Positions 31,002 through 48,046 of a stretch of 64,000 nt of DNA are shown in pieces. Source of the DNA: Bacteroidota bacterium (GTDB lineage Bacteria; Bacteroidota; Bacteroidia; Flavobacteriales_D; Crocinitomicaceae); assembly GCA_024280295.1 (NCBI GenBank), contig JAJRQK010000025.1:22523-86522 (forward strand). The letters run 5' to 3'. The notes under the pieces are model-generated. The model saw nothing but the letters and a program-made list of their open reading frames with translations. It did no database searches and was not told where the DNA came from. A program made the translations under genes and the position numbers. Position 1 is the stretch's first letter, and each line of letters begins with the position of its first letter.

Positions 31002-31059
31002 AGATTAAAGTCGCTTTCTGAACTTTTTGTAAAATAACACAAAATCAGTCGAAATAAGC

Positions 31060-31067
31060 TATATTTG
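31060..31067 (+). promoter_or_regulatory. Possible Bacteroidota -7 promoter box TATATTTG upstream of the ACP gene
   Basis: It matches TAnnTTTG 30 nt upstream of the ATG at 31097, within the 95-bp divergent intergenic region. This rests on the motif match alone. Confidence 0.3.
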
Positions 31068-31096
31068 ATTAATTCATACTGACTAAAATCTGATAA

Positions 31097-31318: not shown

Positions 31319-31319
31319 A

Positions 31320-32336
31320 ATGGCTTTGTTCAAGGTTGAAAACACTAAAATTGTTGGCGTATCAGGCGCAATTCCTAAAAACGAAGTCTCTAATAATGAT
31401 CTTGAAGGGTTAACCAGGCAAGAGATTGACTTACTGATTAAGACAACAGGAATTGAGAATAGAAGAGTAGCAAATAATGCTATTTGTGCTTCAGATTTGT
31501 GTTTTTCGGCTGCTGAAAAATTACTCGAAGAACTCCAATGGGATAAAAATGAAATTGAGGTCCTAGTATTTGTTACTCAAACTCCAGATTATCCAATTCC
31601 AGGAACAAGTATGATTTTACAAGATAGGTTAGACCTACCAAAATCATGCATGACAATAGATATTAATCAAGGTTGCGCGGGATACGTATATGGACTTTCG
31701 GTAATAACTAGTATGATGAGCTCAGGAGGAATTAAAAAAGGGCTATTACTTGTCGGAGATACAATTACCAAATTAATCGATAAAGGAGACAATAGTGTCG
31801 CTCCAATTTTTTCAGATGCGGGAACTGCAACTGCAATTCAATTTGACTCCTCTGCGGAGGAAATGGTCTTCAACTTACAAACCGACGGTTCCGGATTTGA
31901 GGCGATTATTGTAAAGGAAGGAGGAGCTCGAAATCAGAAAATTGAAGGTGGAAATAAAATGCGTATGCGCGGACATGATATTTTTGCTTTCGCGCTGAAA
32001 GAGGTTCTGCCAAATATAAATTCGGTGATAGAGCATGCTGATGCAAACAAAGATCAAATTGATTATTACATATTTCATCAAGCGAATAAACTATTGAATG
32101 AATCTATTCGAAGAAAAATGAGAATTGATTCTTCGAAAGTTCCTTACACATTAAACAAGTATGGAAATACAAGTTGTGCAACAATCCCCTTAACTCTTGT
32201 GAGTGAGTTAAGCGAGGAGGCTCGAAATAAAGCCTTGAATTTGCTAATCTCTGGATTTGGAGTAGGTTTGTCATGGGGAAGTGCTCTCGTAAAAATTTCC
32301 GATATTGTGTGTCCCGAACTAATTGAAGAGGAGTGA
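31320..32336 (+). CDS. 3-oxoacyl-ACP synthase III (FabH-like)
   Basis: 338 aa with the Cys-His-Asn triad context: INQGCAGYVYGL, FHQANKLL, YGNTSCATIPL. Confidence 0.8.
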   Translation: MALFKVENTKIVGVSGAIPKNEVSNNDLEGLTRQEIDLLIKTTGIENRRVANNAICASDLCFSAAEKLLEELQWDKNEIEVLVFVTQTPDYPIPGTSMILQDRLDLPKSCMTIDINQGCAGYVYGLSVITSMMSSGGIKKGLLLVGDTITKLIDKGDNSVAPIFSDAGTATAIQFDSSAEEMVFNLQTDGSGFEAIIVKEGGARNQKIEGGNKMRMRGHDIFAFALKEVLPNINSVIEHADANKDQIDYYIFHQANKLLNESIRRKMRIDSSKVPYTLNKYGNTSCATIPLTLVSELSEEARNKALNLLISGFGVGLSWGSALVKISDIVCPELIEEE

Positions 32337-33244
32337 GTCAAGTTGAATATACTGTAATTGTTCCCGTTTACAAAAGTGTAGATACACTCCAACAATTATT
32401 TGATGGCGTGGAGAAGTGCATGTCTGAATTAAATTTCACATTTGAAATTCTCTATGTTGAAGATTCTGGATCAGAGGACAGCTGGAATGAGCTGCTCAGA
32501 TTAAAAACAATCCATCCAAATCATATTAGAATAATCCGTCTTTCTAGGAATTTTGGACAGAATGGAGCTACACTCTGCGGAATTGATGAGAGTAGGGGTG
32601 AAAAGATTATTACTATTGATGATGATATGCAAACTCCACCAAGTGAAATTGCAAAAATGATCAACTTCTATCAAGAAACAGGGGCGGATGTTGTCTATGC
32701 CAAATACTCTGAAAATAAAACATCATGGTTTCGTCGGTCGGGTAGTAAATTGATGAAGCGAATTTTTAGAAAGAGCGATAGTGGGTCAATAGGGTCGTCA
32801 TTCAGGCTTATTGACACACATATTGTAGATCGATTAAGGTTTCACGCGCAAGATCATCTCTTCATCAACCAGGTGATTTCTTGGTACACATTGAATGCTC
32901 AGTATATAGAAGTAGAGCAAAATGCGCGCGTTTCAGGTAAATCAGGATATTCATTGTTCAGATTGGTAGTAATGTCGCTTCGACTCATCATGTATTATAC
33001 AAGTATTCCAATCAAAATTATGATTACGCTAAGTGTCTTGACAGCAATTGGTATTGCGAGTATGACGGCGTACTATATTTATTACCAGCTTAACAAAGGG
33101 GATTCAGTCGATTTATTTATGATCAGTGTCCTATTAGCAATGGCAGTAATCTCTGCTAGCATTAGTGTTTTTGGTGTTTACATTAATCGTATTTATTCAG
33201 CTAGAGTTAAGAAGCCGAACTATGCGATCAAAGTCAAAATGTAA
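32333..33244 (+). CDS. GT2 polyprenyl-phosphate glycosyltransferase (ArnC/GtrB-like)
   Basis: 303 aa. It has VIVPVYKS, YVEDSGSEDS, DDDMQTPP and two C-terminal TM helices followed by YINRIYSARVKKPNY, the layout of ArnC/GtrB/DPM1-type enzymes. GTGA start-stop overlap with the upstream gene. Confidence 0.75.
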   Translation: MSQVEYTVIVPVYKSVDTLQQLFDGVEKCMSELNFTFEILYVEDSGSEDSWNELLRLKTIHPNHIRIIRLSRNFGQNGATLCGIDESRGEKIITIDDDMQTPPSEIAKMINFYQETGADVVYAKYSENKTSWFRRSGSKLMKRIFRKSDSGSIGSSFRLIDTHIVDRLRFHAQDHLFINQVISWYTLNAQYIEVEQNARVSGKSGYSLFRLVVMSLRLIMYYTSIPIKIMITLSVLTAIGIASMTAYYIYYQLNKGDSVDLFMISVLLAMAVISASISVFGVYINRIYSARVKKPNYAIKVKM

Positions 33245-33825
33245 TGATCCTCAGAAAATATGGAGTTGAGCTTGTTTCAATTACAAAAATTGACCTCGAA
33301 ACAATTAGAGTTTGGCGCAATGATCCGGCAGTGAGTACACGAATGTTTTTTCAAAAAAATATTTCCACAGAGAAACAACAGAATTGGTTTAACTCCCTTA
33401 CCAATTCTGATGTTTATATGATGATTTGTTATGATAATATCCAGATTGGATTAATAGACGTGAAGAATATTGACTTTGAAAATCTAACAGGAGAAGCTGG
33501 AATATTTATTGGAGATAAAGATTACAGACAGTCGTACGTTCCAATGCTCGCAATTCTTTGCATGATGCACACATTTTTCCTCGATTTCGGTTTTATATCT
33601 TTATCGGCTATCCTGCGAAGTGATAATAAAATGGCCCTTAAATTCAATCTTGACCTGGGATATGAAATTGTTTCTAAATCTTCAGATCAAATTAACTTGA
33701 AGGTGAGTAGAGAGGCTTTTTTGAATTATATTGATATCAATCAGTCAACTTATGCCTGTTTTGAGAATGACGAACTAGATCATTCACTTTCTTCAATTGA
33801 AGAAACTCTTTTCCGTTTGAAATAG
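33244..33825 (+). CDS. GNAT-family N-acyltransferase
   Basis: 193 aa with the IRVWRNDPAV motif typical of sugar N-acetyltransferase GNATs (PseH/WecD-like). Its start overlaps the preceding stop. Confidence 0.6.
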   Translation: MILRKYGVELVSITKIDLETIRVWRNDPAVSTRMFFQKNISTEKQQNWFNSLTNSDVYMMICYDNIQIGLIDVKNIDFENLTGEAGIFIGDKDYRQSYVPMLAILCMMHTFFLDFGFISLSAILRSDNKMALKFNLDLGYEIVSKSSDQINLKVSREAFLNYIDINQSTYACFENDELDHSLSSIEETLFRLK

Positions 33826-34682
33826 CTAAAAAATCGTTCCTTTTCTAATCGTAGTGCTAGACGAATAGGAATGCTTGGCTGAAGTCCCCATCGAATCAAT
33901 CTAAGAGGAAGCCATAAATTAGAATAAGGTAACTTTTTGGAGGACATTTTTTTTCGCAAAGGTGAGTTCATTGCCATCCAGAATTGTTTTTGATTGTACT
34001 TGAAGTAGTCTCTTGCTGCTCGACCTCTGAATATTTCCATTCCAATATGAAAGGTCAAAATTTCATCTTCGAATAATCGATAGTTTTTAGCAAGAGCAAA
34101 AATGTTTTGAGCAAATGTGATTCCGATAAATGGAACTCCGATGCAAATCTTCTTCAACTCAAAGTCGAGAAATAAATCACGGTGAAATACGAAACAATCA
34201 AATCCAGGATGTTTCTTCCCTTTTTCTTGGTAAATTTCTTCGAGTTGTTCAACCTTTGTGAAATGTGCTTCAAGCCTCCTCCGATTGATAATAAATGCAT
34301 CCAATCCTTCATTAATGAATCGATTTACTTCAGAATAGAAGTCTAGGTAAACACCAATATCAACATTTGTATAGATCAAATACTCGGCATCACTTTCTTC
34401 AAACAGGCGACGGACAATATCATCAATTAATGGAAGTTTTAGTTGCTTTTCAAAGGTTCCGAAATCGAGTACTGACCGATCTAAATCACGTGTGCTACGA
34501 AATCCATCCACAACCATTTCTTTATCCTCAGGATATTGGGCCGTCCATAACTCAACCTCTACAAGTTCTTTGGCTTCCTCTTTTGCGTGCAGCATAGACG
34601 CAAATGTTATGGGCTGTGCGGTAAACAAATCCGAACTTGAATCAGCATGAAATGGATTTATAATATGAGCTATTTTTCGCAC
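33780..34682 (-). CDS. Hypothetical protein, possibly a GT-A-like glycosyltransferase
   Basis: 300 aa with a GTG start. YTNVDIGV is a possible DxD-like site. The function is not supported beyond genomic context. Confidence 0.4.
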   Translation of the reverse strand: MRKIAHIINPFHADSSSDLFTAQPITFASMLHAKEEAKELVEVELWTAQYPEDKEMVVDGFRSTRDLDRSVLDFGTFEKQLKLPLIDDIVRRLFEESDAEYLIYTNVDIGVYLDFYSEVNRFINEGLDAFIINRRRLEAHFTKVEQLEEIYQEKGKKHPGFDCFVFHRDLFLDFELKKICIGVPFIGITFAQNIFALAKNYRLFEDEILTFHIGMEIFRGRAARDYFKYNQKQFWMAMNSPLRKKMSSKKLPYSNLWLPLRLIRWGLQPSIPIRLALRLEKERFFSYFKRKRVSSIEESE

Positions 34683-34751: not shown

Positions 34752-35726
34752 ATGTGTACCTTAGAAGCCACATTCTGCGACGTGAATAATTATCCCAAAA
34801 TATCAATTGTCACCGTAAACTTTAACAACGGTGAATTTCTCGAACAGACCATCAAATCGGTTATTGAACAGGAGTACCCTAATCTTGAGTACATCTTGAT
34901 TGATGGCGGTAGTACGGACAATAGTTTGGAAATAATCGAACGTTACGCGGACCATTTTTCTTATTGGATAAGTGAACCAGACGATGGACAATATCAGGGC
35001 ATTCAAAAAGGATTTGAAAAATCGACAGGCGAAATCATGGCGTGGCTGAATTCAGATGATAAATATTTGCCCCAATCGCTTTTCAGTGTAGCTGAAATAT
35101 TTACCAAGTACGAAGAAGTAAATTGGTTGATGGGATTAGCGCGAGAATATACAGAAGATGGTGCTCTTGTTGGTCAAATTACCTTACCATGGTGTCGCTG
35201 GTCAAAATACCGCTACCTCACAAATGATTTCCAATTCATACAACAGGAATCATCGTTTTGGTCGAGAGAGTTATGGGATAAAGTAGGAGCAACCCTCGAT
35301 TTTCAATTTGATTTAGCGGGAGATATGGAGTTGTGGTCACGTTTCTTCCGATTCGAGAAATTGCACACAACGACATTAGAATTATCTGGTTTTCGTCACA
35401 GGAAAGAAGGCCAACGATCAAAAGTAGGAAAGAAGACCTACCTCGAAGAATGTCTTCAAGTGGTTAAACGCGAACAAAAACGCTTATCAATTGGAACTAA
35501 AATAGGCTTACCTTTTCGCTACCTTGCCAAATGGTTTTTTGGCCCCTTCTTCTTTCTTGATTGGCCGTTTTTTAGATGGTTGTATCGACTTTCGTTCAGT
35601 ATTCCAGATGTCATTTATTATGATTTCTATAGCCACAACTTTACCAAAGAATCGAAAATGGTGAAATTGCCGCCAATGATGATAGGAAAAAGACAAGTTC
35701 ACCGTAAAATGTTCTCTCAGAAATAA
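34752..35726 (+). CDS. Glycosyltransferase family 2
   Basis: It has ISIVTVNFNNGEFLEQTIKSVIEQEYPNLEYILIDGGSTDNS and NSDD. I prefer the ATG at 34752 to the TTG at 34743. Confidence 0.8.
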   Translation: MCTLEATFCDVNNYPKISIVTVNFNNGEFLEQTIKSVIEQEYPNLEYILIDGGSTDNSLEIIERYADHFSYWISEPDDGQYQGIQKGFEKSTGEIMAWLNSDDKYLPQSLFSVAEIFTKYEEVNWLMGLAREYTEDGALVGQITLPWCRWSKYRYLTNDFQFIQQESSFWSRELWDKVGATLDFQFDLAGDMELWSRFFRFEKLHTTTLELSGFRHRKEGQRSKVGKKTYLEECLQVVKREQKRLSIGTKIGLPFRYLAKWFFGPFFFLDWPFFRWLYRLSFSIPDVIYYDFYSHNFTKESKMVKLPPMMIGKRQVHRKMFSQK

Positions 35727-36541
35727 TGGGAAAGACAGTCATAAATAATAAATCAGCAAAATTCGGAGAATACCTTCGAAGTATTTATCAATACCGACAA
35801 TTGATCTTCTCTTTTGCGAAACGAGATTTAAAAACTCGGTTTATTCAAACAAAACTAGGTGTGCTTTGGATGATTATCCAACCGTTAATCGCACTAACTA
35901 TTTTTACCATTTTCTTCGACCAATTAATTCAACTCGAAACAGGAGATGCTCCCTACATAGCGTTTGCATTTAGTGGAATGACGATCTGGTACTTTTTCAC
36001 AAACATGGTGAACACTGCTGGAACTGCATTGATTAGTTCGCAAGAATTAATCCGGAAAGTTTATTTCCCCAAAATATTACTTCCAATCTCAAAAATTGCC
36101 GTCGCAACGATTGAATTCTTTGTAGCTTTTTCGCTGCTGATCATCATAATGCTCATTCTTGGCTTGAACTTCTCTCCGAAAATTATCTTTCTACCAGTAG
36201 TAATTGTAATGACAATTCTAGTGGGAAGTTGTGTCGCTATTTGGCTAAATATCCTAACAATCAAGAAAAGAGATTTGCAACACTTGATTCCTTACCTCAC
36301 AAACTTTGGAATATGGGTAACTCCAGTTTTTTACCCAACTACATTGATTCCTGAAGAATTCCGTGATTACATTTATTACGTAAACCCAATTGCAACTACG
36401 ATTGATTTCCTAAGATCCATGCTTTTTGACCTCCCATTTCAATGGATGTACTGCTTGTCGTTTATCCCTGTTTTTATCCTACTTATTCTAGGAATTCGTA
36501 CTTTTAAGAATATTGAAAAAAACATGGTTGACTATCTCTAA
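35726..36541 (+). CDS. wzm: ABC-2 type polysaccharide exporter permease (Wzm/TagG/KpsM-like)
   Basis: 271 aa with six hydrophobic segments and the N-terminal RDLKTRFIQTKLGVLWMIIQPL motif typical of ABC-2 permeases. Confidence 0.8.
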   Translation: MGKTVINNKSAKFGEYLRSIYQYRQLIFSFAKRDLKTRFIQTKLGVLWMIIQPLIALTIFTIFFDQLIQLETGDAPYIAFAFSGMTIWYFFTNMVNTAGTALISSQELIRKVYFPKILLPISKIAVATIEFFVAFSLLIIIMLILGLNFSPKIIFLPVVIVMTILVGSCVAIWLNILTIKKRDLQHLIPYLTNFGIWVTPVFYPTTLIPEEFRDYIYYVNPIATTIDFLRSMLFDLPFQWMYCLSFIPVFILLILGIRTFKNIEKNMVDYL

Positions 36542-36550
36542 ACTTCCGCT

Positions 36551-37600
36551 ATGAGAAAGATATTTAAAAATGAAGAACAACAGAAGCAATTTATCAAAGA
36601 CGGATTTGTGCTGCTTCAATTACTCGATGCAAAAGAGGTTGATACATTGTTAAACTATTACAACAATCAGCAATTTGATAATAAAATTGAAGCTGGATTT
36701 CACATCAGCCTTGACAACGAAAATGAAGATTTAGTAAAGGAAGTTGGATCGAAAATTAAAGAAATTGTTGTTCCGAAAACGTCTGATTTATTGGACAATT
36801 GTAAAGTCTTCACAGCAAGTTATGTGATCAAAGAACCAGGCTTACAAAACATCGTCCCACCTCACCAAGATTGGACTTTTGTGGATGAAAATCAATTCTG
36901 CTCGGCAACTGTTTGGACTGCATTGGTTGATGTGACTGAACAAAATGGAGCACTTGGTGTTATTCGAGGAAGTCACAAAATTTTCGATCACAAACGTTCA
37001 TCACCTTCGCCTCAATCTAAATCACCATTATCTGATCATGTTTTTACATTGTTTCCATTCGTCGAAATCATAGAAATGAAAGCGGGGGAAAGTTTAATTT
37101 TTGATAATCGTCTGATTCATGCGTCTCCACCAAATTTATCTGATCAAGCTCGAATTGCAGTCGGAATTGGAATTACACAAAGTGAAGCACAATTGAAACA
37201 TTATTACCAAAATCCTACTTCTGGAAAGTTGGAAGAATATGAGGTGGATGAGAATTTCTATACATGGTTCAACAACAAGCGACTTTCTGATTTATTTGAT
37301 GAAGGAAAATCACCCAGCGGATTAAAGAAAGTGAGGGAGGTTGAACGTGTAGTTCCCGATTTATCGAAAGAAGAAATGGAAAATCTCGTTCAACAATTAG
37401 ATGGAGTGGAGTACAATCGCCCTTTCATGGAGCGTTTGGCAAAATTGTTTGATTATTCAATCGATGGATCGAAAGGTGAAGATCAAGAACCTGAATTAGT
37501 AGTGACTGAAACATGGACTGATAAACGTTCCTTTTTCCAAAAGTATTCACCTGGAAATGTCGTCAGAGAAGTAAGTTGGAGAATAAAAGGTCGACCATAA
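36551..37600 (+). CDS. PhyH-family Fe(II)/2-oxoglutarate dioxygenase, paralog 1
   Basis: 349 aa with FIKDGFVLL, PPHQDWTFVDE, GALGVIRGSH, LIHASPPN and ARIAV. The C-terminal tail is KRSFFQKY...SWRIKGRP. Confidence 0.8.
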   Translation: MRKIFKNEEQQKQFIKDGFVLLQLLDAKEVDTLLNYYNNQQFDNKIEAGFHISLDNENEDLVKEVGSKIKEIVVPKTSDLLDNCKVFTASYVIKEPGLQNIVPPHQDWTFVDENQFCSATVWTALVDVTEQNGALGVIRGSHKIFDHKRSSPSPQSKSPLSDHVFTLFPFVEIIEMKAGESLIFDNRLIHASPPNLSDQARIAVGIGITQSEAQLKHYYQNPTSGKLEEYEVDENFYTWFNNKRLSDLFDEGKSPSGLKKVREVERVVPDLSKEEMENLVQQLDGVEYNRPFMERLAKLFDYSIDGSKGEDQEPELVVTETWTDKRSFFQKYSPGNVVREVSWRIKGRP

Positions 37601-37609
37601 TTGAAAGCG

Positions 37610-38548
37610 ATGAGAAAGACATTTACAGACCAAGGATTAGAAGAACGTTTTCAAAAAGACGGATACGTTGAAGTACCATTTTTGACCTCCAAAGAAGTTG
37701 AAATGCTGAAAACGTATTACTTTGATTCCTTAAATGAAAGCGGAGGAAGACTTGGGCCTGAAGACGAAAAACACCAATCGAATCAGGAAATCACTTATGA
37801 CTTCACGTTTATCGATAAGAATTCTGACTACAAGCAACAAGTGTTCGATATGATCACAAATGCCTTTATGAAACGAGTGGATGATTACCTATTTGATTAC
37901 AAACCGATCATTGCAAATTTTATCAGAAAGAAAGAGGACGGAGGAGAAGTTCCATTGCATCAAAATTGGGCATTTGCTGATGAACATAAATGTGCAACCG
38001 TCTCAATTTGGTGTCCTCTTGTGGACAGCAATAAAGAAAATGGAACACTCGAAGTTGTACCAGGAAGCCACAAACGCTATGGAGAAGTGCGTGGGCCGAT
38101 GATTAAATCGGAATTGGCTGGAATTTAATCTGAAATTATTGATAAGTATATGCAACCCGTTGAAACAAAAGCTGGAAATGCAGTTATCCTCGACGATAGT
38201 ATCGTTCATTATTCTTCCCCAAATCAAACAGATGGATTGCGTTTGGCGATTCAATTGATCCTAATTCCAACAGAAGAAAAATCAATTCATTTCCACATGG
38301 ACTTGGGTAAAGACAGGTCAAATGTTGAAGTTCTAGAAGTAGATAAAGACTTTTACATGAAGTTTAATCCGTGGAAAAAACCTTCAGAAGACGTGAAGAG
38401 AATAAACTCATTTAAGTACGAACCGTTTGATATGACAATCGAAGAATTCGGTGCTAAATTGAACAAACAGCGTTTCGACGAGAATAACCAGCCAGTTGAA
38501 GCACTATCTTGGTGGAAAAAAGTACGATCTAAATTGGCAGGAGCATGA
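37610..38548 (+). pseudogene. PhyH-family dioxygenase paralog 2, interrupted by an in-frame TAA (38126-38128) and with H-Q-N replacing H-x-D
   Basis: ORFs 37601-38128 and 38150-38548 are in the same frame. The junction reads ...KSELAGI*SEIIDKYMQPVETKAGNAVILDDSIVHYSSPN, collinear with the neighbouring paralogs. The metal motif is PLHQNWAFADE, with AAT at 37964-37966. Confidence 0.75.
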
Positions 38549-39471
38549 TTGATTTCGATCAGAAAAAAGGGATTTTTAGTGACCCGAAGCTACAAACAGA
38601 GTTTCATGAGAATGGATTCGTTATTGTGCCGTTTATTTCACCTCAACAAATTAAGGAATTATTTGGAGTTTACAAGTCCTGTTATCCTGATGGAGTGGAA
38701 GGCTTTTTCACCACAACCTTTGCGAATAATGTTGAACACCGAGAGCTTGTCAATCAATCGATAAAGAATATTTGTATTGAACAGATCGAAAACTTGTTTG
38801 AGAACTATAAAATTCTGTTTTCTAGTTTTATTGTCAAGGCTCCAGGAGAAGACAGTCGCCTAATCATGCACCAAGACATGACCCTAGTTGATGAAAACGA
38901 ATACTCTGGGATCAATATTTGGTGTCCAATGGTCGATTTGAACGAACTCAACGGAGCGATTGAAGTGTTGCCAAAGAGCCATCGGTTCTATAAAACATAT
39001 CGAGGTTCTTCTATTCCTGATATCTATGATAATGTAAAGGATGAGGTTGTGAATTTGATGCAACCATGTTTCTTGAAAGCTGGTGAAGCAATCATTTTCG
39101 ATCAAAGTATTATTCACAATTCACCTCCTAATTTATCAGATACGGAACGTCCGACAATCAATACGTTTGTTGCACACAAGAATGCAAAAATTAAAATTTG
39201 CTATTGGGACAAAGACACGTTTGGAGATAACATTGAAGTGTTCGAACAGGAAGATGACTTCTTGGAGAAATTTGAGAACTTCGGACACAATATTTTCAGT
39301 CGGCCAACAATCGGGAAAAGTTTAGGGCTCTTTCCGTATGATTTCCCGAAATTAACTGTGAATCAAATTGAACGTGAATTGGGAGTGACAATTGCTCGTG
39401 CACCTCAAAATCAACCTGAACAGGAAAAACAAAGTTGGTTAAAACGACTTTTTTCAATAAAAACAGCATGA
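38545..39471 (+). CDS. PhyH-family Fe(II)/2OG dioxygenase, paralog 3
   Basis: 308 aa with FHENGFVIVPF, IMHQDMTLVDE, GAIEVLPKSH and IIHNSPPN. The tail is SWLKRLFSIKTA. ATGA overlap with the upstream gene. Confidence 0.8.
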   Translation: MIDFDQKKGIFSDPKLQTEFHENGFVIVPFISPQQIKELFGVYKSCYPDGVEGFFTTTFANNVEHRELVNQSIKNICIEQIENLFENYKILFSSFIVKAPGEDSRLIMHQDMTLVDENEYSGINIWCPMVDLNELNGAIEVLPKSHRFYKTYRGSSIPDIYDNVKDEVVNLMQPCFLKAGEAIIFDQSIIHNSPPNLSDTERPTINTFVAHKNAKIKICYWDKDTFGDNIEVFEQEDDFLEKFENFGHNIFSRPTIGKSLGLFPYDFPKLTVNQIERELGVTIARAPQNQPEQEKQSWLKRLFSIKTA

Positions 39472-40337
39472 AAGAACCCATTTTTAAAGATGCAGAAATT
39501 CAACGCAAGTTTGACGAAGATGGCTTTGTGAAAATCCCTTTGTTGAGTGAGCAAGAAGTGGATACTTTAGCGAAAATGAGAGAAGAATATTTCCCTGAGA
39601 AAGGAAGCGTATTTTTCTCATCGAGCTACTTAGACGACTATGATTTAAAAATGGAAATCAGCAACAAAATTTCTGAAGCAATCAGTGCGGGATTAGAAAA
39701 ACAATGTGTCAATTATCGATTGATTGGAGCAGCATATTTGATCAAAGGAATTGGAAAACACAGCGAAATGCCAATGCATCAAGATTGGACGATTGTAGAT
39801 GAGCAGGAATTCTATGCTGTCAATGTTTGGATTCCACTAACTGACACCAACGAGGAAAATGGAACACTTGAATTGATGAAGGGAAGTCATAAATGGAATG
39901 AAGCATTACGCGCACCAACCTTACCTATGGCGTTTGCAGGATTGGAAGATAAAATAAAACCTAAATTAACAGTAGTTCCTGCCAAAAAAGGTGAGGTAAT
40001 TATACTGAACCAAGCAACAATTCATTATTCAAAGCCAAACACGACAGATGAAATTCGTCCTGCAATCACATCGGGAATGATTAGTCAAAAAGCACCACTC
40101 AAATTCCATTATTGGGACAAGGAACGAAATCAAATAGAGGAGTTCGAACAGGAGGATGATTTCCTTTTGCGTTTCGAGAATTTTATGGATGCAATTTACA
40201 AACGTCCTCTAATGGGCAAGAGTAAGCAATTCTTTGATTATTCAATTCCTAGATGGAACGAACAAGATTTGAATAGGTTGACTAATACAAGAGTAAATAA
40301 ATCGTCATTTTTTAAACGAATATTCGGGAAATCATGA
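39468..40337 (+). CDS. PhyH-family Fe(II)/2OG dioxygenase, paralog 4
   Basis: It has FDEDGFVKIPL, PMHQDWTIVDE, GTLELMKGSH and TIHYSKPN. The tail is SSFFKRIFGKS. The ATG at 39468 forms an ATGA overlap with the upstream stop, so I prefer it to the 39435 start in the ORF track. Confidence 0.8.
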   Translation: MKEPIFKDAEIQRKFDEDGFVKIPLLSEQEVDTLAKMREEYFPEKGSVFFSSSYLDDYDLKMEISNKISEAISAGLEKQCVNYRLIGAAYLIKGIGKHSEMPMHQDWTIVDEQEFYAVNVWIPLTDTNEENGTLELMKGSHKWNEALRAPTLPMAFAGLEDKIKPKLTVVPAKKGEVIILNQATIHYSKPNTTDEIRPAITSGMISQKAPLKFHYWDKERNQIEEFEQEDDFLLRFENFMDAIYKRPLMGKSKQFFDYSIPRWNEQDLNRLTNTRVNKSSFFKRIFGKS

Positions 40338-41197
40338 ATCGAGTTAACTTTAAAAGTCCTGAACTGACAGAACGATTAAAAGTGGATGGATACGCAACAT
40401 TTAATTTGCTGCGTGATCATGATATAGAAGCGTTGACCTCTATTTTTAATGAAAACCATTCATCTACCCCTGAAGGCTTTTATGCCACAACTCATTTGGA
40501 TGACAAGAAGAAACGAAAAACGTTGAGCGATCAAGCAATGTCTATCTTATCTTGTCGGATTGAATCTCATTTTGAAAACATTGAACTATTGGGAGGAGCA
40601 TTTATTTCAAAATCTCCAGGTGAGAAAGGAATTTTACCACTTCACCAAGATTGGAACTTAGTCAACGAAAAACACGCGCGATCCTATAATTTATGGATTC
40701 CTCTGGTTGATGTCGATGAAGTAAATGGCGCGATGAGAATTTTGGTCGGAAGTCACTCAAAGCAGGAAACGTACCGAGGCCCAAATGTTCCGCCAGTACT
40801 GTACTCGATTTCGAATGAAGTAGATCAGCACATGGTTTCGTTAAACATGAAACAAGGTGAGGCTGTGCTATACGATCACGCACTCTGGCATTCTTCTCCA
40901 AAAAACCAAACGGATAAACTACGCCTTGCCTTTGTGTTGGGTGTTGTTCCAAAAGAAGCAGATTTGAAGTATTATCAGCAAAATGGAGATACTGTGGAAG
41001 AATATGCGTCACATTCCAATTTTTTCTTTGAAAATGATCGAGATTCAGGCCCAAAGGGATTATCCTTGCTGCGATCATTCAACTATCCAAATTCTTTTCT
41101 ATCAAAAGAGCAATTTGAAGAAGTGTATCTTGGAAAAGATAAACTGAAACAAGAACCAAAAAAAGGCTTTTTCCAAAAACTATTTGGGACTAAATAA
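40334..41197 (+). CDS. PhyH-family Fe(II)/2OG dioxygenase, paralog 5
   Basis: 287 aa with LKVDGYATF, PLHQDWNLVNE, GAMRILVGSH and LWHSSPKN. The tail is KKGFFQKLFGTK. ATGA overlap with the upstream gene. Confidence 0.8.
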   Translation: MNRVNFKSPELTERLKVDGYATFNLLRDHDIEALTSIFNENHSSTPEGFYATTHLDDKKKRKTLSDQAMSILSCRIESHFENIELLGGAFISKSPGEKGILPLHQDWNLVNEKHARSYNLWIPLVDVDEVNGAMRILVGSHSKQETYRGPNVPPVLYSISNEVDQHMVSLNMKQGEAVLYDHALWHSSPKNQTDKLRLAFVLGVVPKEADLKYYQQNGDTVEEYASHSNFFFENDRDSGPKGLSLLRSFNYPNSFLSKEQFEEVYLGKDKLKQEPKKGFFQKLFGTK

Positions 41198-41203
41198 GAA
41201 ACA

Positions 41204-42175
41204 ATGACTACAACAATATATATCGTATTTATTCTACTTCTAGCGATATGCTGTTTTGTTCTCACGATCCTATTGATGAGAAAAGGAAGTAAGGATAAAA
41301 GGATGATTATTCCCCAAAAACCAGATCATTCAGCTCGAGAAGTTGGTGATTTTTACAACAATCAAACCAATAATTTTTTAAAAGTTTATGGCGAAGTGAT
41401 TCAAGCATTTCGAACAACTGATGTGACCAAATTACTCGATTATCAAATTGAAACAATTGGTTTCGAGAAAGGTCAGCGGGTTTTAGATGCTGGTTGCGGA
41501 GTTTGTGGTCCAGCTCGATATTTTGCGAAAAATGCAGGTGTCCAAGTTGAAGCAATCACCATTTCGGAGGATCAAGTTGAAAAGTCAAAAAAATACATTG
41601 CTGACGAAGGCTTGGAAGGAAAAGTCAATGTTACACATGGCGATTATCACCAATTAGAGAAATATTACGAATCGGATAGTTTTGATGCCGTGTATTTCTT
41701 GGAATCGTTTGGGCATGCTACAAATCATGAGCAGGTAATCAACTCTGCATGGGGAATGTTGAAGCCAGGAGGGAAACTCTACATCAAAGATTTATTCATC
41801 AAGGAAGCGGCAATCCAGTCTTTATCGGATGATATTCAACGCGAAGTGAAAAACATCAATGACGCGTATCGCTACAACATTGCTGATTTATACGAAGTAT
41901 TAAAACATGTTCGAAAAAAAGGATATATCCTATCAAGCGTTAAAACCATCGACCTTCCCTTGGAGGATTTTGAAAACTTAACGATCTCAAATGATTTCCA
42001 AGAACTAACGGGTATCAATAAAATTGAAAACCTACAAGAATATGTGTTTCCCGTCGATTTTTTCGAGATAACATGTATCAAACCTTGGAATGCCCTAGAG
42101 TATGGGAATAGTCGTTATTTCTTGCAGAATTTATTCTACATGCAAATGCATAATCGTAAACAGGAGGAATTGTAA
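41204..42175 (+). CDS. Class I SAM-dependent methyltransferase with an N-terminal TM anchor
   Basis: 323 aa with TM TIYIVFILLLAICCFVLTILLM, SAM motif I VLDAGCGVCGPARYFA and post-I/II elements (VEAITIS, FDAVYFLES, LKPGGKLYI). It ends 2 nt before wzt. Confidence 0.8.
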   Translation: MTTTIYIVFILLLAICCFVLTILLMRKGSKDKRMIIPQKPDHSAREVGDFYNNQTNNFLKVYGEVIQAFRTTDVTKLLDYQIETIGFEKGQRVLDAGCGVCGPARYFAKNAGVQVEAITISEDQVEKSKKYIADEGLEGKVNVTHGDYHQLEKYYESDSFDAVYFLESFGHATNHEQVINSAWGMLKPGGKLYIKDLFIKEAAIQSLSDDIQREVKNINDAYRYNIADLYEVLKHVRKKGYILSSVKTIDLPLEDFENLTISNDFQELTGINKIENLQEYVFPVDFFEITCIKPWNALEYGNSRYFLQNLFYMQMHNRKQEEL

Positions 42176-42177
42176 TC

Positions 42178-43389
42178 ATGGATGACGATAGAAAAGTGTT
42201 GGAAGTCAGAAATCTTCAGAAAGTATTTGTGAAAAATGACGGAACTAAAATTCTTGTCTTGGATGATGTCAATTTTGATCTAAACAAAGGCGAAATTTTA
42301 GGTGTAATCGGACGAAATGGATCAGGAAAAAGCACCTTGTTGAAAGTGTTAAGTAAGATTAGTGGTCCAACCGATGGAGAAATTCAATATTCTGGTATTC
42401 TGAAATCAATTATCGAAATTGGAACCGGGTTTCATCCTGATTTGTCTGGCAAGGAGAATGTAAAGTTGAATGCTCAACTACTTGGTATTCCTTGGAATGA
42501 ATTTAAGTTGATTTATGATGAATTGGTAGAATTTAGCGGACTGGAAGATTTCATGAATATGCCAGTTAAGCATTATTCGAGCGGAATGTATTTGCGTCTA
42601 GCTTTTTCCATTGCTTTCCATTCTAAAATCGATATTCTTTTACTTGATGAGGTTTTGGCAGTGGGAGATGCTGAATTTCGGCGTAAATGTTACCACAAGA
42701 TCAGGGAATTACGAGATGAAGGAACAGCAATTATTTTTGTGAGCCATCAAATGGAACCGATTATTGAATTCTGCGAACGTTGCATGTGGTTGGATAACGG
42801 TCGAGTGGAAATGATTGGAAAACCAATGGATGTAATTGAAAATTACCTAGACTCAAGTTTAAATCAAAATGACAAAATTCGTGGTGAGAGAATTGATTCA
42901 GAGCGAATAGCATATGAGATTGATTACGCTAGTTTAAATTCAGAATTTTTAAAAGTGAATGCCATATTCGTATATGCGCAAGGAAAAGATCTTGATGAAA
43001 ACATTACAGTTTCCGATGATATTATTATAAAAATGGAGTGCGATAAATTGGTGGATTTTAATTCATTTGAAATTATTTATACGCTTTGGAACATAAATAA
43101 TGTTCGCGTACTGACAGACTCATATGGACTTCGGCGTGATTATTCTATTGAGAGTCTGAAAAAAGGAAAGTACGAAGTGATCTGTCGAATACCAGCTAAC
43201 TTGTTAACAAGAGGCGTTTACAGTGTGGGGATTGCAATTGGTCGCTCAAGAGAATTTGTAAAAGAAGTACCGAACGTCTTCAATTTTAAAGTTCATACAG
43301 AAGAAGAGGATGTTTACGGAATCGAGATAAGTTCAATCATTCGTCCTCACTTGGACTGGACTGTTGAACTGAAAAAGTCCAATGTTTAG
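42178..43389 (+). CDS. wzt: Polysaccharide ABC exporter ATPase (Wzt/TagH-like) with a ~160-aa C-terminal extension
   Basis: 403 aa with Walker A GRNGSGKST, signature YSSGMYLRLAFS and Walker B LLLDEVLAVGD. Residues ~245-403 extend beyond the NBD, as in Wzt proteins that carry a glycan-cap-binding domain. Confidence 0.8.
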   Translation: MDDDRKVLEVRNLQKVFVKNDGTKILVLDDVNFDLNKGEILGVIGRNGSGKSTLLKVLSKISGPTDGEIQYSGILKSIIEIGTGFHPDLSGKENVKLNAQLLGIPWNEFKLIYDELVEFSGLEDFMNMPVKHYSSGMYLRLAFSIAFHSKIDILLLDEVLAVGDAEFRRKCYHKIRELRDEGTAIIFVSHQMEPIIEFCERCMWLDNGRVEMIGKPMDVIENYLDSSLNQNDKIRGERIDSERIAYEIDYASLNSEFLKVNAIFVYAQGKDLDENITVSDDIIIKMECDKLVDFNSFEIIYTLWNINNVRVLTDSYGLRRDYSIESLKKGKYEVICRIPANLLTRGVYSVGIAIGRSREFVKEVPNVFNFKVHTEEEDVYGIEISSIIRPHLDWTVELKKSNV

Positions 43390-44273
43390 AAAAATAACCA
43401 CCTTTTCTTTGAAGGAATATGCTTTTTTAAAAGCGATTTGAATTCGCTGTTACTAATCGAATCAAGATTACCGTAATCAATAGTTGTTTTATTCTTCCCA
43501 ATCGGATTCGGATCGTCTTTCTGGTTATTGAAATCGTCGTAATGAATGAATAAATCATCAGGCACATCGTAGCGATTAACTTCCATTCCTCTATTGGTTT
43601 CTGCTCCATGAAAACACATCGTTTCCGCAGGAATTGGAATAATATTATTAATAATCGAAGTTCTTGATGAATCGGAAAGGTTCGGTGGCGAATAATGTAA
43701 AATTCGGCTATCGAAGATTAACGCTTCTCCTACTTTCACATCAATTGGCTTAAGGTGTTTCTTCGCCTCATCTATATTGCCTGAAAATTTTGGGGGAATT
43801 CCTGCTCCACGAATGTTTAACGGAAAACGGTGACTTCCTTTTACAGCATAGAGAGTTCCATTCTGAGTCGTACTATCAACTAAAGGAATCCATAAATTGT
43901 AAGCGCGAAATTTACGTTCATCAATAATACTCCAGTCTTGGTGCAAGTTTAAAACGGAGTTGTCACCGATACCTTTAACCAAAAAGAAATAAGAGAGCAT
44001 TCTATGATTGACGAGCATTGATTCTATACTTGGAGAAAGCATATCACGTATTCCGGCATGTACGTTTCGCTTAATATCAATGTCAGAAATTGAAACACTT
44101 CCATAAAAAGCAGATTCAAAATCTTGGGGATAACCATCCACAGTTGTCTCTAAAAATGAACGATAACTCTCGGAATCGAAATTCGGCAAGCTAATTTTCA
44201 CAATGCCATCTTCACGCAATGATTGATTCAAAGCGTCAGAATGAAATACATCGATCCAATTTTCGGTTTCCAT
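43386..44273 (-). CDS. PhyH-family Fe(II)/2OG dioxygenase, paralog 6
   Basis: It has LREDGIVKISL, NLHQDWSIIDE, GTLYAVKGSH and ILHYSPPN. The tail is SKKRWLFF. I prefer the ATG at 44273 to the TTG at 44282. Its 3' end overlaps the wzt stop by 4 bp. Confidence 0.8.
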   Translation of the reverse strand: METENWIDVFHSDALNQSLREDGIVKISLPNFDSESYRSFLETTVDGYPQDFESAFYGSVSISDIDIKRNVHAGIRDMLSPSIESMLVNHRMLSYFFLVKGIGDNSVLNLHQDWSIIDERKFRAYNLWIPLVDSTTQNGTLYAVKGSHRFPLNIRGAGIPPKFSGNIDEAKKHLKPIDVKVGEALIFDSRILHYSPPNLSDSSRTSIINNIIPIPAETMCFHGAETNRGMEVNRYDVPDDLFIHYDDFNNQKDDPNPIGKNKTTIDYGNLDSISNSEFKSLLKKHIPSKKRWLFF

Positions 44274-44278
44274 TTTTA

Positions 44279-46147
44279 TCAATTAAAGAATGATTTTATT
44301 TTTTGAAAAAAACCATCCGATTCCTCTTGAGTTTTAGCCGTTTTTTGTTGAGGTAAGTTCAGGCCGTCAAAGTGACTTTTGTTATATGGTTTTGGATCAA
44401 CATTAAGTGTTTGAATGTGATCAATTGTCGTTGGATAATCGAATCGATCTTCCCGCAATAAATAGTTAGGATACGATAAGAATTCTTCAGTTCGCTCTCC
44501 AAGAGGAGTTTCATTAATATGATAGAATCGAAACTCAGCATTTTTGTTTGTTATCGCGCAAGCAGATGCTGGACGAACAATGGTGCTATTATTATTTCGC
44601 GATCCATGAATGAAGCGATGGTCATAAATAAAGGCGTGACCAGCTTTCATTGGTTTTAATTCCAAATTATCCCACAGAAAATCTTCTACATCTCGCAATT
44701 GATTTATAACGTTGGGTCCACGATATGTTGGTTGAATCAAATGACTTTTTGGAAGTATTTCAATAGCACCGTTCTCGGCTGTTGTATCAACCAGTGGCAC
44801 CCAAATGTTGCATGATCTAAATCGACGTTCGTCCACCAAGTTCCAATCCCTATGTGGAGTAATGAGCCCTTTTCCGTTTGGAGGTTTTGCAACGAATGTC
44901 CCACCTAATATTTGAGTGTCAACGAAGAGTTCTTCAACGTGTTGAGCGTACATATTTGCAATCCAATCGTTCACGTTTTTTTTCAATTCAACATCTTCGG
45001 AATGACTGATTGCAAATATCCGTTCGGCACTATCTTTATTCTGATCGTTAAAATAGTTCAGTAATTTGGCCACTTCATCTTCATTGAAAAATGGAATGAT
45101 TGCATAACCTTCTTCGCACAATTCCCGCTCTAATTCATCGTCCTTGAAAATGCGTATCGCCTCATGCACGTCAGAATTGTATTCAGCGAACTTCGCTTGC
45201 TCGAGAGGGGTTGTTGTTATTGGTTCAGTGATGAAGTTTTGAACTGGTTCACCATCATGGAACAAAGAAACTTTCTCAATTCCAAGTAAGTCACAATCGT
45301 TTTCGAATTGCTCAGAAGTGATTTTTGGAGAAATAAATGCTCCTTCACCTATTTTTTTACCAATCGTAGGTCGTACAACACAATTGTGAAAGAAATTTGG
45401 ATAATTAATTAAAAAATCATCAGCTTGCTGGTAAAGTTCTATTGGGTCATCTTCTTTATCTTGGTAACTCAACTGGAAGGTCGCTTCTGCCGGAAGGATA
45501 CCACTCACAACCGCAATTCGATCTTTCCCTGATGTGTTTTTTCCAGAAGTATGAATAATCCGAGCATCGAACACGAGTGCTTGACCCGCCTTCAATGCAA
45601 TTGGTTTCAAGTATTTCTTGACTGTTTCTTTAATGTTTGAAAAGGGAGGAGAAAACGACACGCTTCTGAACGGAGAAAACATTTGATGCGTTTTTTCTAC
45701 AACCCATAAAGCACCATTAGTTTCATCAACGTCCTGCAAGGGAATCCATACGCTCAAAGAAGAATGTTTGAATTCATCTACTGCGCTGGAATCTTGGTGA
45801 ATTGAAAATGCGCTATCGTCACCAGATAATTTATTAATGAAAAAATTCAAACCGTTGTTGTACCCTGTAAAATGTTCTTCGAAAACAGAATTGAGTTCTG
45901 TCTGAAGTGCACTATGAATACGTTTACGATAGTCGGTATCTTGAGAATAAACAGAGTAGAACATTCCTCCTTTTTCATCTGTTAGTTGGTGCTCCTGATG
46001 GTAAATCGAAAGCATCTCCTCAATTGTTGAAGGTTCAATTAGATCCACTATTGCATAACCAAATTCCTCAACCTTCTGTTTGATTTCAGAATTTTTGAAA
46101 ATGGTAAATGGAGCGGGAGTCCATGAAAATGGATGGGAATAACTCAT
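44279..46147 (-). CDS. Tandem double PhyH-family Fe(II)/2OG dioxygenase (two complete domains in one polypeptide)
   Basis: Domain 1 has SIHQDSSAVDE, GALWVVEKTH and IIHTSGKN. Domain 2 has TPHRDWNLVDE, GAIEILPKSH and FIHGSRNN. The tail is GFFQKIKSFFN. The start at 46147 forms an ATGA overlap with the upstream stop. Confidence 0.8.
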   Translation of the reverse strand: MSYSHPFSWTPAPFTIFKNSEIKQKVEEFGYAIVDLIEPSTIEEMLSIYHQEHQLTDEKGGMFYSVYSQDTDYRKRIHSALQTELNSVFEEHFTGYNNGLNFFINKLSGDDSAFSIHQDSSAVDEFKHSSLSVWIPLQDVDETNGALWVVEKTHQMFSPFRSVSFSPPFSNIKETVKKYLKPIALKAGQALVFDARIIHTSGKNTSGKDRIAVVSGILPAEATFQLSYQDKEDDPIELYQQADDFLINYPNFFHNCVVRPTIGKKIGEGAFISPKITSEQFENDCDLLGIEKVSLFHDGEPVQNFITEPITTTPLEQAKFAEYNSDVHEAIRIFKDDELERELCEEGYAIIPFFNEDEVAKLLNYFNDQNKDSAERIFAISHSEDVELKKNVNDWIANMYAQHVEELFVDTQILGGTFVAKPPNGKGLITPHRDWNLVDERRFRSCNIWVPLVDTTAENGAIEILPKSHLIQPTYRGPNVINQLRDVEDFLWDNLELKPMKAGHAFIYDHRFIHGSRNNNSTIVRPASACAITNKNAEFRFYHINETPLGERTEEFLSYPNYLLREDRFDYPTTIDHIQTLNVDPKPYNKSHFDGLNLPQQKTAKTQEESDGFFQKIKSFFN

Positions 46148-47064
46148 GTTTTCAGGATCGTTTTTTTGATTTTTCTTAACCAATTAGTAGTGTTTTTAGC
46201 TTTCTGAATAGGCTTGATTACTTTGACTTCTCCCTGAACCAATCTAATTTGCTCGATTAAGTGATTCTCAGAAAGTGAATCAAATGTAAATGAATCAAAT
46301 TCTGCTTCACCTTCTGGTCGCGCTCCTCGTTTTGACGCATAATCAATATAGAAATCAGGTGTTGTTTCAAATCGTTCTAGTTGCTTTTCACCTTCACCAT
46401 TTTCCTTATAATGAAAATAGTGCTGAGCATTTTCTGGTGTGAGTGTTAAGCCCAAACTTACACGGGATTTCGGAGTTTTATTCAAGGTTGATCCGTGAAG
46501 TAAACCATGAAAAAAGAAGATTGCTTCACCAGCTTTCATCGGCACTGATTGCATATTTTTTTCAATAAGTTTCCAGTGATCTCGGTAAACGTCGGGAGTT
46601 CCAACGCCACGAATAGTTCGATTGAATTGATGACTTCCTTTTAAAACAATGATGTTTCCATTTTCATCATTTACATCTTCAAGCGGACACCACATGTTGA
46701 TACTCCAATCATTTCGCTCATCTACAAACGACCAATCCTGGTGCGGAGGAAGATGTCCTTCTTGAGTGGGAGGTTTCACAACAAATAATCCGCCAAATGC
46801 GTTGTATTTGCAAAATGTCGTATTCATTTTCTCCTGAAAGACGCGTATTATTTCATTTTCCACTTCCAGTTTATATTCCATTCGTGGATCGAAATAGGAC
46901 TTGTAAAATGCAGTTGGGTGCTCAGGGTGCCATTTCTTATATAATTCTTTAAACGCCGAAATTTCCTGTTTGTCGATAAATGGAAGTACAATGAAACCAT
47001 CGCGCACCATTTTTTTATCCAATTCTGGATTTAAAAATAGACCAACAGGTTTCTCATTTAACAT
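46144..47064 (-). CDS. PhyH-family Fe(II)/2OG dioxygenase, paralog 9
   Basis: It has MVRDGFIVLPF, PPHQDWSFVDE, GNIIVLKGSH and LLHGSTLN. The tail is NWLRKIKKTILKT. I prefer the ATG at 47064 to the TTG at 47076. Confidence 0.8.
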   Translation of the reverse strand: MLNEKPVGLFLNPELDKKMVRDGFIVLPFIDKQEISAFKELYKKWHPEHPTAFYKSYFDPRMEYKLEVENEIIRVFQEKMNTTFCKYNAFGGLFVVKPPTQEGHLPPHQDWSFVDERNDWSINMWCPLEDVNDENGNIIVLKGSHQFNRTIRGVGTPDVYRDHWKLIEKNMQSVPMKAGEAIFFFHGLLHGSTLNKTPKSRVSLGLTLTPENAQHYFHYKENGEGEKQLERFETTPDFYIDYASKRGARPEGEAEFDSFTFDSLSENHLIEQIRLVQGEVKVIKPIQKAKNTTNWLRKIKKTILKT

Positions 47065-47123
47065 AGAAGAGTTCAAATGTTTCAGGTTTAAAGATACGAC
47101 TTCCTATAGAACTAAATCAAGTT

Positions 47124-48046
47124 TCAAGTCCAGTACTTTAAGGTTTTTTCATCTTCCGTGAAAGCTAAAAATCCCCCAATAGTAATTCTGTTTTGAGTTC
47201 CTTCAACCAATTCTACTTTGTGCCAGATTGGACCTCCAGAAAAGATCAAGAGATCACCTGCATTCGGTTTCACTTTACTTCGCTTCAAGGGGCTGTTTGG
47301 GCTTGTGTCTAGACTTGTTCCGTCTGCTAAAAACACTTCATTATCATGACGAGCACTTTCTTTTGTTTGACCACCTTCCCAGAGTAAATCGAACAAGGTT
47401 AATTCCCCACCAATTTCAGCTGGATTTACCGTTAAAAAATAGCTGAGTTGATCTTTGACATTAACTTCTGTCTGTAAATGATCATAAAATACAGGAAACT
47501 CTTGTTGGAAGTAATTACCGCAGTGAACCATAATGAATCCTTGTCCTGGATAATTAACCCGAATAGAACCACTTGCATAACGCCCTTCTCCATCAAATCC
47601 TTTTGGAACATCTACTGATCGACCTCCTACTAACTTCTCTAAAATTGATTGAAGCCTTTTATTGAAGTCAAAGCCAGTAAGTTTTTTAAATGTTTCAGAC
47701 AACTGCTCGCATTCATTGAAATAGGCTTTGATGTTGTCGCGTTCTTGCGAAAAATCGTCATCTGGTTTACCAATTGTGAAAAATGCCGTGGATACGAATG
47801 TCCAACACCTGTAGGAATCGTTATTTCTGGATCAATCGCTTCGATTGCCGTTTTCATTTTCGATATTTCTTCTTTCGAGCAGACATTTCGAATGATAATT
47901 CCAGTATATTTTTTGTCGTAAATGTCTTTCACGGCATCAGAGAAATTGTCCAATTCGGAAACATCAATGTATTTCCAATTGTATAGGTCATTTTGGATGT
48001 TGGAGACGGAAATTTTCTTTTTGAAAAAATTAAATTGTTTAAACAT
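47124..48046 (-). pseudogene. P4H-like 2OG-Fe(II) oxygenase-fold gene split by a -1 frameshift; the H-x-D position reads H-C-G
   Basis: ORFs 47639-48046 and 47124-47702 overlap in different frames. The downstream frame is open up to 47831. Restoring one base in the A5 run at 47779-47783 (T5 on the coding strand) joins ...GVGHSYPRHF to FTIGKPDDDFSQERDNIKAY.... The fold motifs are VNYPGQGFIMVHCGN, LSYFLTVNPAEIGGELTLF, KPNAGDLLIFSGGPIWHKV and NRITIGGF. Confidence 0.65.

Follow-up and report, generated by a model that had tools for sequence, protein, structure and literature searches.

Short in-plane amphipathic helices anchor otherwise soluble proteins to the membrane from either terminus, as in the C-terminus of FtsA, the N-terminus of MreB, and segment A of RNase E, and the helix of MinD is disordered in solution and folds on lipid. 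In FtsA, MreB, and RNase E, one anchor serves one protein. Here we describe a locus of a Crocinitomicaceae bacterium (Bacteroidota; contig JAJRQK010000025.1, positions 22,523 to 86,522; the whole stretch of 64,000 nucleotides that was analysed is called the window) in which such anchors would be carried by eight paralogs of the PhyH dioxygenase family and a halogenase together, and appear to be interchangeable with transmembrane (TM) helices in orthologs. We propose that this PhyH battery is tethered to the membrane by terminal tails and acts on a lipid-linked substrate before its export, a reading to which we assign a probability of roughly 0.72.

The C-terminus of MinD is KGFLKRLFGG in E. 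coli (PMC5471200), and the helix of B. subtilis MinD is KGMMAKIKSFFG (bioRxiv 10.1101/2024.06.11.598461); both had been given correctly in a sequence-only reading of the window, which had pointed out the tails. The end of paralog E, KKGFFQKLFG, is nearly identical to the E. coli sequence, and that of paralog G, GFFQKIKSFF, shares the hexapeptide KIKSFF with GMMAKIKSFFG of B. subtilis. In both systems, a basic amphipathic helix of 8-13 residues would stand at the terminus after a flexible linker, with two hydrophobic residues, two others, and again two hydrophobic ones, and it is this pattern rather than the sequence that is kept. In contrast to MinD, the proteins of the battery have a PhyH core and no ParA/MinD deviant Walker A P-loop ATPase, so that the resemblance, which is restricted to the tails, is due to convergence and not to homology. 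Moreover, no ATP-driven dimerisation switch is evident in the battery, and its tails would serve the proximity of enzyme and substrate, not pattern formation.

WbdD, the kinase/methyltransferase chain terminator of the E. coli O9a Wzm/Wzt pathway, is held at the cytoplasmic face of the membrane by a C-terminal amphipathic region and acts on the undecaprenyl-linked glycan before export. It is comparable to the proposed battery as a tailoring enzyme of a Wzm/Wzt pathway with an amphipathic membrane anchor, whereas it belongs to another enzyme class, is a single protein with a coiled-coil ruler, and works without dioxygenases or a halogenase. KdoO and LpxO, two Fe(II)/2-oxoglutarate (2OG) dioxygenases, are active on the cytoplasmic side of the inner membrane, where they hydroxylate Kdo2-lipid A, and hence provide a parallel for membrane-associated Fe/2OG oxidation of a membrane-embedded glycolipid. 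However, they are not members of PF05721, LpxO is TM-anchored, both are single enzymes and not a battery of 5-12 paralogs, and to our knowledge no MinD-type tail has been described in them. EvdO2, AviO1, HygX, and SnoK/SnoN, which are among the closest solved relatives of the PhyH cores (Foldseek E-values of 1e-11 to 1e-12), oxidise C-H bonds of sugar moieties; unlike the proposed battery, these are soluble enzymes of secondary metabolism, and we know of no membrane-targeting tail in any of them. In the literature that we searched, there was no report of amphipathic targeting tails on PhyH dioxygenases, of a tailoring battery sharing such tails, or of this gene cluster.

Terminal tails of the PhyH paralogs

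The eight PhyH genes, designated A to H, each end in a terminal tail (Table 1), and the eight C-termini and end coordinates given in the sequence-only reading agreed exactly with the translations of the open reading frames (ORFs). Its observation was thus confirmed, with some qualifications. The pattern [S/G/N]-[F/W]-[F/W/L]-x-[K/R]-[I/L/V/Y] was found behind a variable linker in seven of the tails. The tail of F is basic-aromatic but not helically amphipathic, A bears a distinct and longer motif, and G has two domains with one tail. The hydrophobic moment (muH) of the tails of B, C, D, G, and H was 0.49-0.65, with net charges of +1 to +5, as compared with 0.52-0.55 for the two MinD helices. 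Lower moments were obtained for E (0.38), for the second helix of A (0.32), and for F (0.23). When single window tails of 8-13 residues were compared with their own shuffles, they ranked at percentiles of 65-97%, values that are individually not significant.

Structure models were consistent with tails that stand apart from the enzyme. In the AlphaFold2 (AF2) model of E, the last approximately 20 residues formed a coil with a predicted local distance difference test (pLDDT) score of 56 and were not docked to the core, which scored above 90. In the model of A, helices at residues 328-331 and 334-346 (pLDDT 71-81) followed a disordered acidic linker (pLDDT 39-54). In these models, the tails lie outside the folded core and are joined to it by a flexible linker.

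A profile-free search of 1.8 billion representative proteins gave 2022 relatives at E<=1e-10, many of which were two- or three-domain fusions. The 80 genome loci kept from the scan were all from metagenome-assembled genomes (MAGs), and none of the best matches was a cultured isolate, a possible reason for the cluster having gone uncharacterised. They belonged mostly to Bacteroidota (Crocinitomicaceae, Flavobacteriales, Chitinophagales, and Saprospiraceae), with a few from Proteobacteria and one from Verrucomicrobia, and the nearest relatives were Fluviicola/Crocinitomicaceae MAGs. The following comparisons were based on 82 loci fetched from outside the window; the genome scan had supplied 80 and contig look-ups 3, of which one had no usable sequence. 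In total there were 437 PhyH ORFs including those of the window, 428 of them outside it, and the latter were compared with the 725 non-PhyH ORFs of these loci.

Within the last 20 residues, a strict MinD-like motif, [FW][FWLIM][^DEP][KR][ILVFYMW], was present in 118 of the 428 PhyH ORFs (27.6%), as against 10 of the 725 non-PhyH ORFs (1.4%); per 1000 positions, it occurred 17.4 times in PhyH tails and about once elsewhere. The A-type motif was found in 82 of the 428 (19.2%) and in 0.3% of the non-PhyH ORFs. The best 11-mer hydrophobic moment was 0.56 for PhyH and 0.42 for non-PhyH ORFs, and the mean net charge of the tails was +2.9 and +0.8, respectively. Relative to their own shuffles, PhyH tails were more amphipathic (mean z of 1.07) than the controls (0.21), with a Mann-Whitney p of 1e-35 that is inflated because the related sequences are not phylogenetically independent. 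Since the signal was lost on shuffling, the order of the residues matters beyond their composition.

The sequence-only reading had made its proposal depend, among other things, on amphipathic periodicity and on the presence of the tails in orthologs; both were observed, and its interpretation is supported. In the population, the angular hydrophobicity spectrum had a peak at 90-100 degrees in the tails only, with none in the linkers or the controls. The tail pattern recurred in every paralog lineage and in several phyla, and a basic tail was kept in the orthologs of every window paralog despite drift of the sequence. In E orthologs, KKGFFQ[KR]LFG drifts to KRWFSFFGS, KKGWFSKLFGG, and SIFSKIFGSR, down to about 40% identity. 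SW[IL]KRLFSTKTA of the C orthologs drifts to HWFKSLFSS and HFFSRLFSR, and SWWKKVRSKLVGA of the B orthologs to GFVSKLKAMLT and similar forms, while F orthologs end in KKKRWFF, RKKRFFF, or KRKKWLFF. Tails that were left unclassified were mostly looser forms such as KSLFRKILDAVGI, GLLNRIKKLF, and TLFQKLLNLFK.

In the alignment of E, the linker had an entropy of about 3 bits with gaps, as compared with 1.4-2.3 bits at the hydrophobic positions of the tail, where the substitutions were conservative. Furthermore, synonymous codon changes were observed within conserved tail residues of close orthologs. Relatives of high GC content carried Arg-rich amphipathic tails, for example LLRRLLRRL and RRVARRVRRLVRR, which excludes an artefact of AT-rich composition.

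Membrane anchors in relatives and other explanations of the tails

In several relatives, the place of the tail is taken or shared by a TM helix. A true hydrophobic TM helix was found at the C-terminus in place of the tail in two relatives (P0122 and P0188), and directly after an A-type tail in two (P0123 and P0158). In multi-domain fusions, the tail was present at the terminus only and the internal junctions were without it, and standalone orthologs of the N-terminal domain of G (G1-type) bore tails of their own.

A similar exchange was seen in the neighbouring methyltransferase, which has orthologs in 49 loci, with an N-terminal TM helix in 30-32 of them. In about 11 orthologs, an N-terminal basic-aromatic motif (MSFFNALKKIF, MKELLKRLFK, LSIFKKLFGE) replaces the TM helix, and in 3 others (L064, L067, and L078; also P0170 and P0186) the methyltransferase follows a PhyH domain and its A-type tail within one fused protein and has no TM helix. 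Orthologs of the halogenase (L006-L046) begin with MFLKKLFGKK, MLKKIFTKKK, or MTLLKRLFKKK. The same motif is accordingly present on PhyH, methyltransferase, and halogenase proteins, so that one device would be used on three unrelated folds and at either terminus. Judging from these sequences, the tails are interchangeable with TM helices in relatives, and they probably target the membrane.

Two further observations concern the fused proteins. Relatives with two or three PhyH domains (P0123, P0129, P0143, P0193, and others) reach 1226 amino acids and carry a tail or TM anchor on the last domain only. VQNFITEP at the junction of the two domains of G (G1-G2) was considered as a decayed tail and rejected, because FITEP-like sequences are a conserved core motif of G1-type orthologs, in which the tail lies further downstream when the protein is standalone.

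Instead of lipid, the tails may bind a common protein scaffold and thereby form a multi-enzyme complex; the C-terminal domain of Wzt, the methyltransferase, and one of the other PhyH paralogs are examples of such a scaffold. We regard this as the main alternative, unlikely for the tails as a whole and most credible for the A-type tail, whose residues F328, Y332, N336, E340, and R344 do not vary among 50 orthologs with identities as low as about 50%. Such near-invariance, far beyond the needs of a generic lipid-binding helix, hints at a specific partner, and the pLDDT of the A helices points the same way. Docking is also favoured by the natural PhyH-methyltransferase fusions, which show that these enzymes work in close proximity, and by the weakness of one short helix on membranes. 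However, these residues also admit a reading as hydrophobic contacts, a helix cap (N336), and an i/i+4 salt bridge (E340-R344), the last two of which would stabilise the helix itself and not form an interface. The tails other than A differ within one genome and drift among orthologs while keeping only their charge and hydrophobic periodicity, which argues against a shared protein receptor. The true TM helices that replace or adjoin the tails, the occurrence of the motif at either terminus of three unrelated folds, and the close match to authenticated lipid-binding MinD helices also speak for the membrane rather than for a scaffold.

It is quite improbable that the C-terminal segment forms a lid that folds over the active site and binds the lipid part of the substrate or gates catalysis. 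Several PhyH-family enzymes use C-terminal lids (an entry for a truncation of SptF, 7fcb, was among the Foldseek matches), and the hydrophobic residues of the tail could contact a polyprenyl chain. However, the linker of 7-20 residues between core and tail is variable, gapped, and often acidic, AF2 gave no confident docking of the E tail, and TM helices can substitute for the tail. A lid is made unlikely by the length and variability of the linker and by the halogenase and the methyltransferase, on which the motif stands at the other end of the protein.

A functionless by-product of AT-rich sequence or of overlapping start-site constraints, which could give Lys/Phe/Ile-rich ends in a window of about 37% GC where many unrelated C-termini are basic and several tails overlap or adjoin the next start codon, is the least probable explanation by far and is largely refuted by the loss of the signal on shuffling, the periodicity peak, the rarity of the motif in non-PhyH ORFs of the same loci, the Arg-rich tails of high-GC relatives, the synonymous changes, and the persistence of the tails whatever gene comes next. 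A C-terminal domain of the type IX secretion system, a secretion signal, and a degradation tag were also considered and were rejected on length, composition, and the absence of a signal peptide.

Several results weigh against membrane tethering by the tails. A HeliQuest-type discriminant (0.944*muH + 0.33*z), applied to the C-termini of the window alone, did not separate the PhyH tails from other Lys-rich ends, a result that also favours the by-product; it was replaced by the motif, shuffle, and spectrum tests on independent loci, and the p-values of those tests suffer from the inflation mentioned above. A minority of the related PhyH ORFs are without any tail, the tail of F has no helical amphipathicity, and that of A is conserved more strictly than lipid binding would require. 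AF2 gave a coil and not a helix for the E tail, which is neutral and not supportive, because disorder followed by folding on lipid is established for the MinD helix. Finally, studies on MinD use tandem copies of the helix for firm tethering, a single helix of 10 residues being weak (PMC5471200; bioRxiv 10.1101/2024.06.11.598461); oligomerisation, a cooperative complex, or a partner may therefore be needed.

Catalytic cores and surroundings of the battery

The region 36551-47076 holds the eight genes with nine Pfam PhyH (PF05721) domains. All eight genes matched PF05721 at 48-134 bits (cutoff of 22), and the pairwise identity among the paralogs was 19-33%. The plus-strand genes A to E adjoin or overlap by a few bases, and are therefore translationally coupled. 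The iron triad HxD/E...H and the 2OG-binding Arg were kept in eight of the nine domains. The exception was B, in which a conserved HQN (HQNW, at about 37950-37965 in the window) replaces HxD across the whole orthogroup, alike in the B-type orthologs of L004-L028, which suggests altered metal ligation or a non-canonical activity. The reading frame of gene B is also interrupted by a TAA at 38126-38128; at this position, Gln is encoded in more than 10 orthologs (AGIQSEII). The stop codon goes back to a recent nonsense mutation or to an error of sequencing, or else it is read through; the tail downstream of it is intact, and the C-terminal fragment of the split gene scored 20.6 bits on PF05721, with the cutoff at 22. 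Neither a signal peptide nor a TM helix was found in any paralog, the highest Kyte-Doolittle mean over 19 residues being 1.03.

The AF2 model of E had a mean pLDDT of 93 and the double-stranded beta-helix fold. Foldseek with this model gave MysH, SnoN/SnoK, SptF, SyrB2, EvdO2, HygX, and PHYHD1 at E-values of 1e-11 to 1e-13. The likeness to PhyH structures was generic (TM-score of about 0.5 and identity of 16-21%), and the best sequence match in the PDB, the sugar-modifying EvdO2, was marginal (E=0.0014). Since the PDB sequence matches were only marginal, no substrate was assigned from this search.

Across the 80 loci, 3-12 PhyH genes per locus occur with Wzm, Wzt, methyltransferase, and ArnC-like glycosyltransferase family 2 (GT2) genes. 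The Wzm-like permease and the Wzt ATPase accompany the battery in about half to most of the related loci, and the ArnC-like GT2 does so in about half; among the closest loci, the three are nearly always present. In the window, the match of the ATPase to Wzt_C, the C-terminal domain with which Wzt binds carbohydrate and reads a terminal modification, was weak (E=1.3e-5, 25.7 bits against a gathering score of 30.4). About 30 of the 80 loci, those closest to the window, have KASIII, a GNAT (PseH-like), a conserved unknown protein, a second GT2, and the ArnC/PgfS-like GT2. Upstream in the window lie a PPTase, a DegT aminotransferase, MBOAT and AlgX-like acyltransferases, Wzz, and Wzy_C. The ArnC-like GT2 is likely to be the maker of the lipid-linked substrate. 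The context fits a lipid-linked, probably N-acylated amino-sugar glycan, with its tailoring at the cytoplasmic leaflet and its export through the ABC-2 transporter as the presumed steps.

The HxG motif of the halogenase (HCGN) was conserved in at least 10 loci, with HCEN in two, and HCGN would imply a halogenated product. The window copy is split by a frameshift near 47639-47702, and the gene is intact (308 amino acids) in the closest relative, L008.

Other genes in the surroundings are recorded here. At 29357-33825, the PPTase, the DegT aminotransferase, KASIII, the ArnC/PgfS-like GT2, and the PseH-like GNAT are grouped, which suggests an N-acylated amino sugar on polyprenyl phosphate. No Pfam or NCBIfam model matched a conserved protein of 300 amino acids (33780-34682, minus strand) that is present in about 30 of the related loci; it has a conserved C-terminal segment, WGLQPSIPIRL(A/G)LRLE, and then the basic-aromatic end ERFFSYFKRKR. 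On the other side, the battery is adjoined by two minus-strand genes (48052-49949), one for a thioredoxin-like lipoprotein and the other for a PHM/DBH-like copper monooxygenase that is secreted and includes a cytochrome c domain; this pair recurs in L027 and L033.

Table 1 Genes and terminal tails of the PhyH battery and adjacent genes in the window. Coordinates of the tails include the stop codon. SAM, S-adenosylmethionine.
Feature	Coordinates	Strand	Basis or remark
ArnC/PgfS-like polyprenyl-phosphate glycosyltransferase (GT2)	32333..33244	+	NCBIfam NF007986, E=2.8e-39, full length, below curated cutoff
Wzm-like ABC-2 permease	35726..36541	+	Pfam ABC2_membrane; KpsM and Wzm matches below curated cutoffs
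PhyH paralog A (349 amino acids)	36551..37600	+	PF05721
A-type tail KRSFFQKYSPGNVVREVSWRIKGRP, longer two-helix motif	37523..37600	+	
PhyH paralog B, in-frame TAA inside	37601..38548	+	PF05721
B tail LSWWKKVRSKLAGA	38504..38548	+	translation
PhyH paralog C	38545..39471	+	PF05721
C tail QSWLKRLFSIKTA	39430..39471	+	translation
PhyH paralog D, likely ATG start overlapping the stop codon of C	39468..40337	+	PF05721
D tail SSFFKRIFGKS, muH 0.52, net charge +3, MinD-like	40302..40337	+	
PhyH paralog E (287 amino acids)	40334..41197	+	PF05721, E=6e-20
E tail KKGFFQKLFGTK, flagged in the sequence-only reading	41159..41197	+	translation
CMAS/CfaB-like SAM methyltransferase, N-terminal TM helix	41204..42175	+	TM region 41204-41290
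Wzt/TagH-like ABC ATPase	42178..43389	+	Pfam ABC_tran; TagH and Wzt models below equivalog cutoffs
PhyH paralog F	43386..44282	-	PF05721
F tail SKKRWLFF, polybasic-aromatic stub	43386..43412	-	translation
Paralog G, two fused PhyH domains, one terminal tail	44279..46183	-	PF05721
G tail DGFFQKIKSFFN, muH 0.65	44279..44317	-	translation
PhyH paralog H	46144..47076	-	PF05721
H tail NWLRKIKKTILKT, muH 0.65, net charge +5	46144..46185	-	translation
WelO5-like HxG halogenase, frameshift-split	47124..48046	-	N-terminus MFKQFNFFKKK at 48014-48046

Proposed tethering and role of the battery

From the sequences, we infer as follows that the enzymes bind the membrane, on which side they do so, what their substrate is, and which reactions they catalyse. 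Each PhyH dioxygenase would consist of a soluble cytoplasmic domain, a variable flexible linker, and, at the terminus, a short element that targets the membrane. For most paralogs, we propose that this element is a MinD-type in-plane amphipathic helix in which positions i, i+1, i+4, and i+5 are aromatic or large aliphatic and Lys/Arg stand at the flanks; it would be unfolded in solution and fold on the anionic cytoplasmic leaflet. Paralog A would use a longer helix-Pro-helix variant, and paralog F a polybasic-aromatic stub. The enzymes are presumed to be cytoplasmic because they need Fe(II), 2OG, and O2 and because signal peptides are absent.

Through the tails, the dioxygenases would be tethered reversibly and peripherally, and would be concentrated at a membrane-embedded, probably polyprenyl-phosphate-linked sugar or glycan. 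This substrate would be built by the ArnC-like GT2 and the second GT2 and would then leave through the Wzm/Wzt ABC-2 transporter. At the same place, the WelO5-like halogenase may be held by the same motif at its N-terminus, and the methyltransferase by its TM helix. As for the substrate being lipid-linked and modified before export by Wzm/Wzt, we consider that the balance tips slightly in favour.

Amphipathic membrane-targeting helices are already well known, and the surrounding pathway may be the more novel part. Tentatively, and with clearly less confidence than in the tethering, the locus may represent the core of a widespread, uncharacterised pathway in which a polyprenyl-phosphate-linked sugar or glycan undergoes serial radical C-H functionalisation on the cytoplasmic face before ABC-2 export, the enzymes being 5-12 membrane-tethered Fe/2OG dioxygenases, a carrier-independent WelO5-type halogenase, and an anchored methyltransferase. 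Its chemistry might then comprise hydroxylation, possibly halogenation, and subsequent O-methylation, in mostly uncultured Bacteroidota and sporadically in Proteobacteria and Verrucomicrobia.

The tails offer a cheap and concrete handle on an opaque conserved cluster. They predict a site, the cytoplasmic leaflet, and therefore a type of substrate, namely a sugar or glycan that is linked to lipid and has Wzm/Wzt as its exporter. If true, the pathway would amount to a new way of tailoring cell-surface glycans, and it would imply heavily oxidised or halogenated surface carbohydrates. Confirmation would bring lipid-linked surface carbohydrates within the reach of Fe/2OG and halogenase chemistry, and the tails would provide natural short anchors for the tethering of enzymes.

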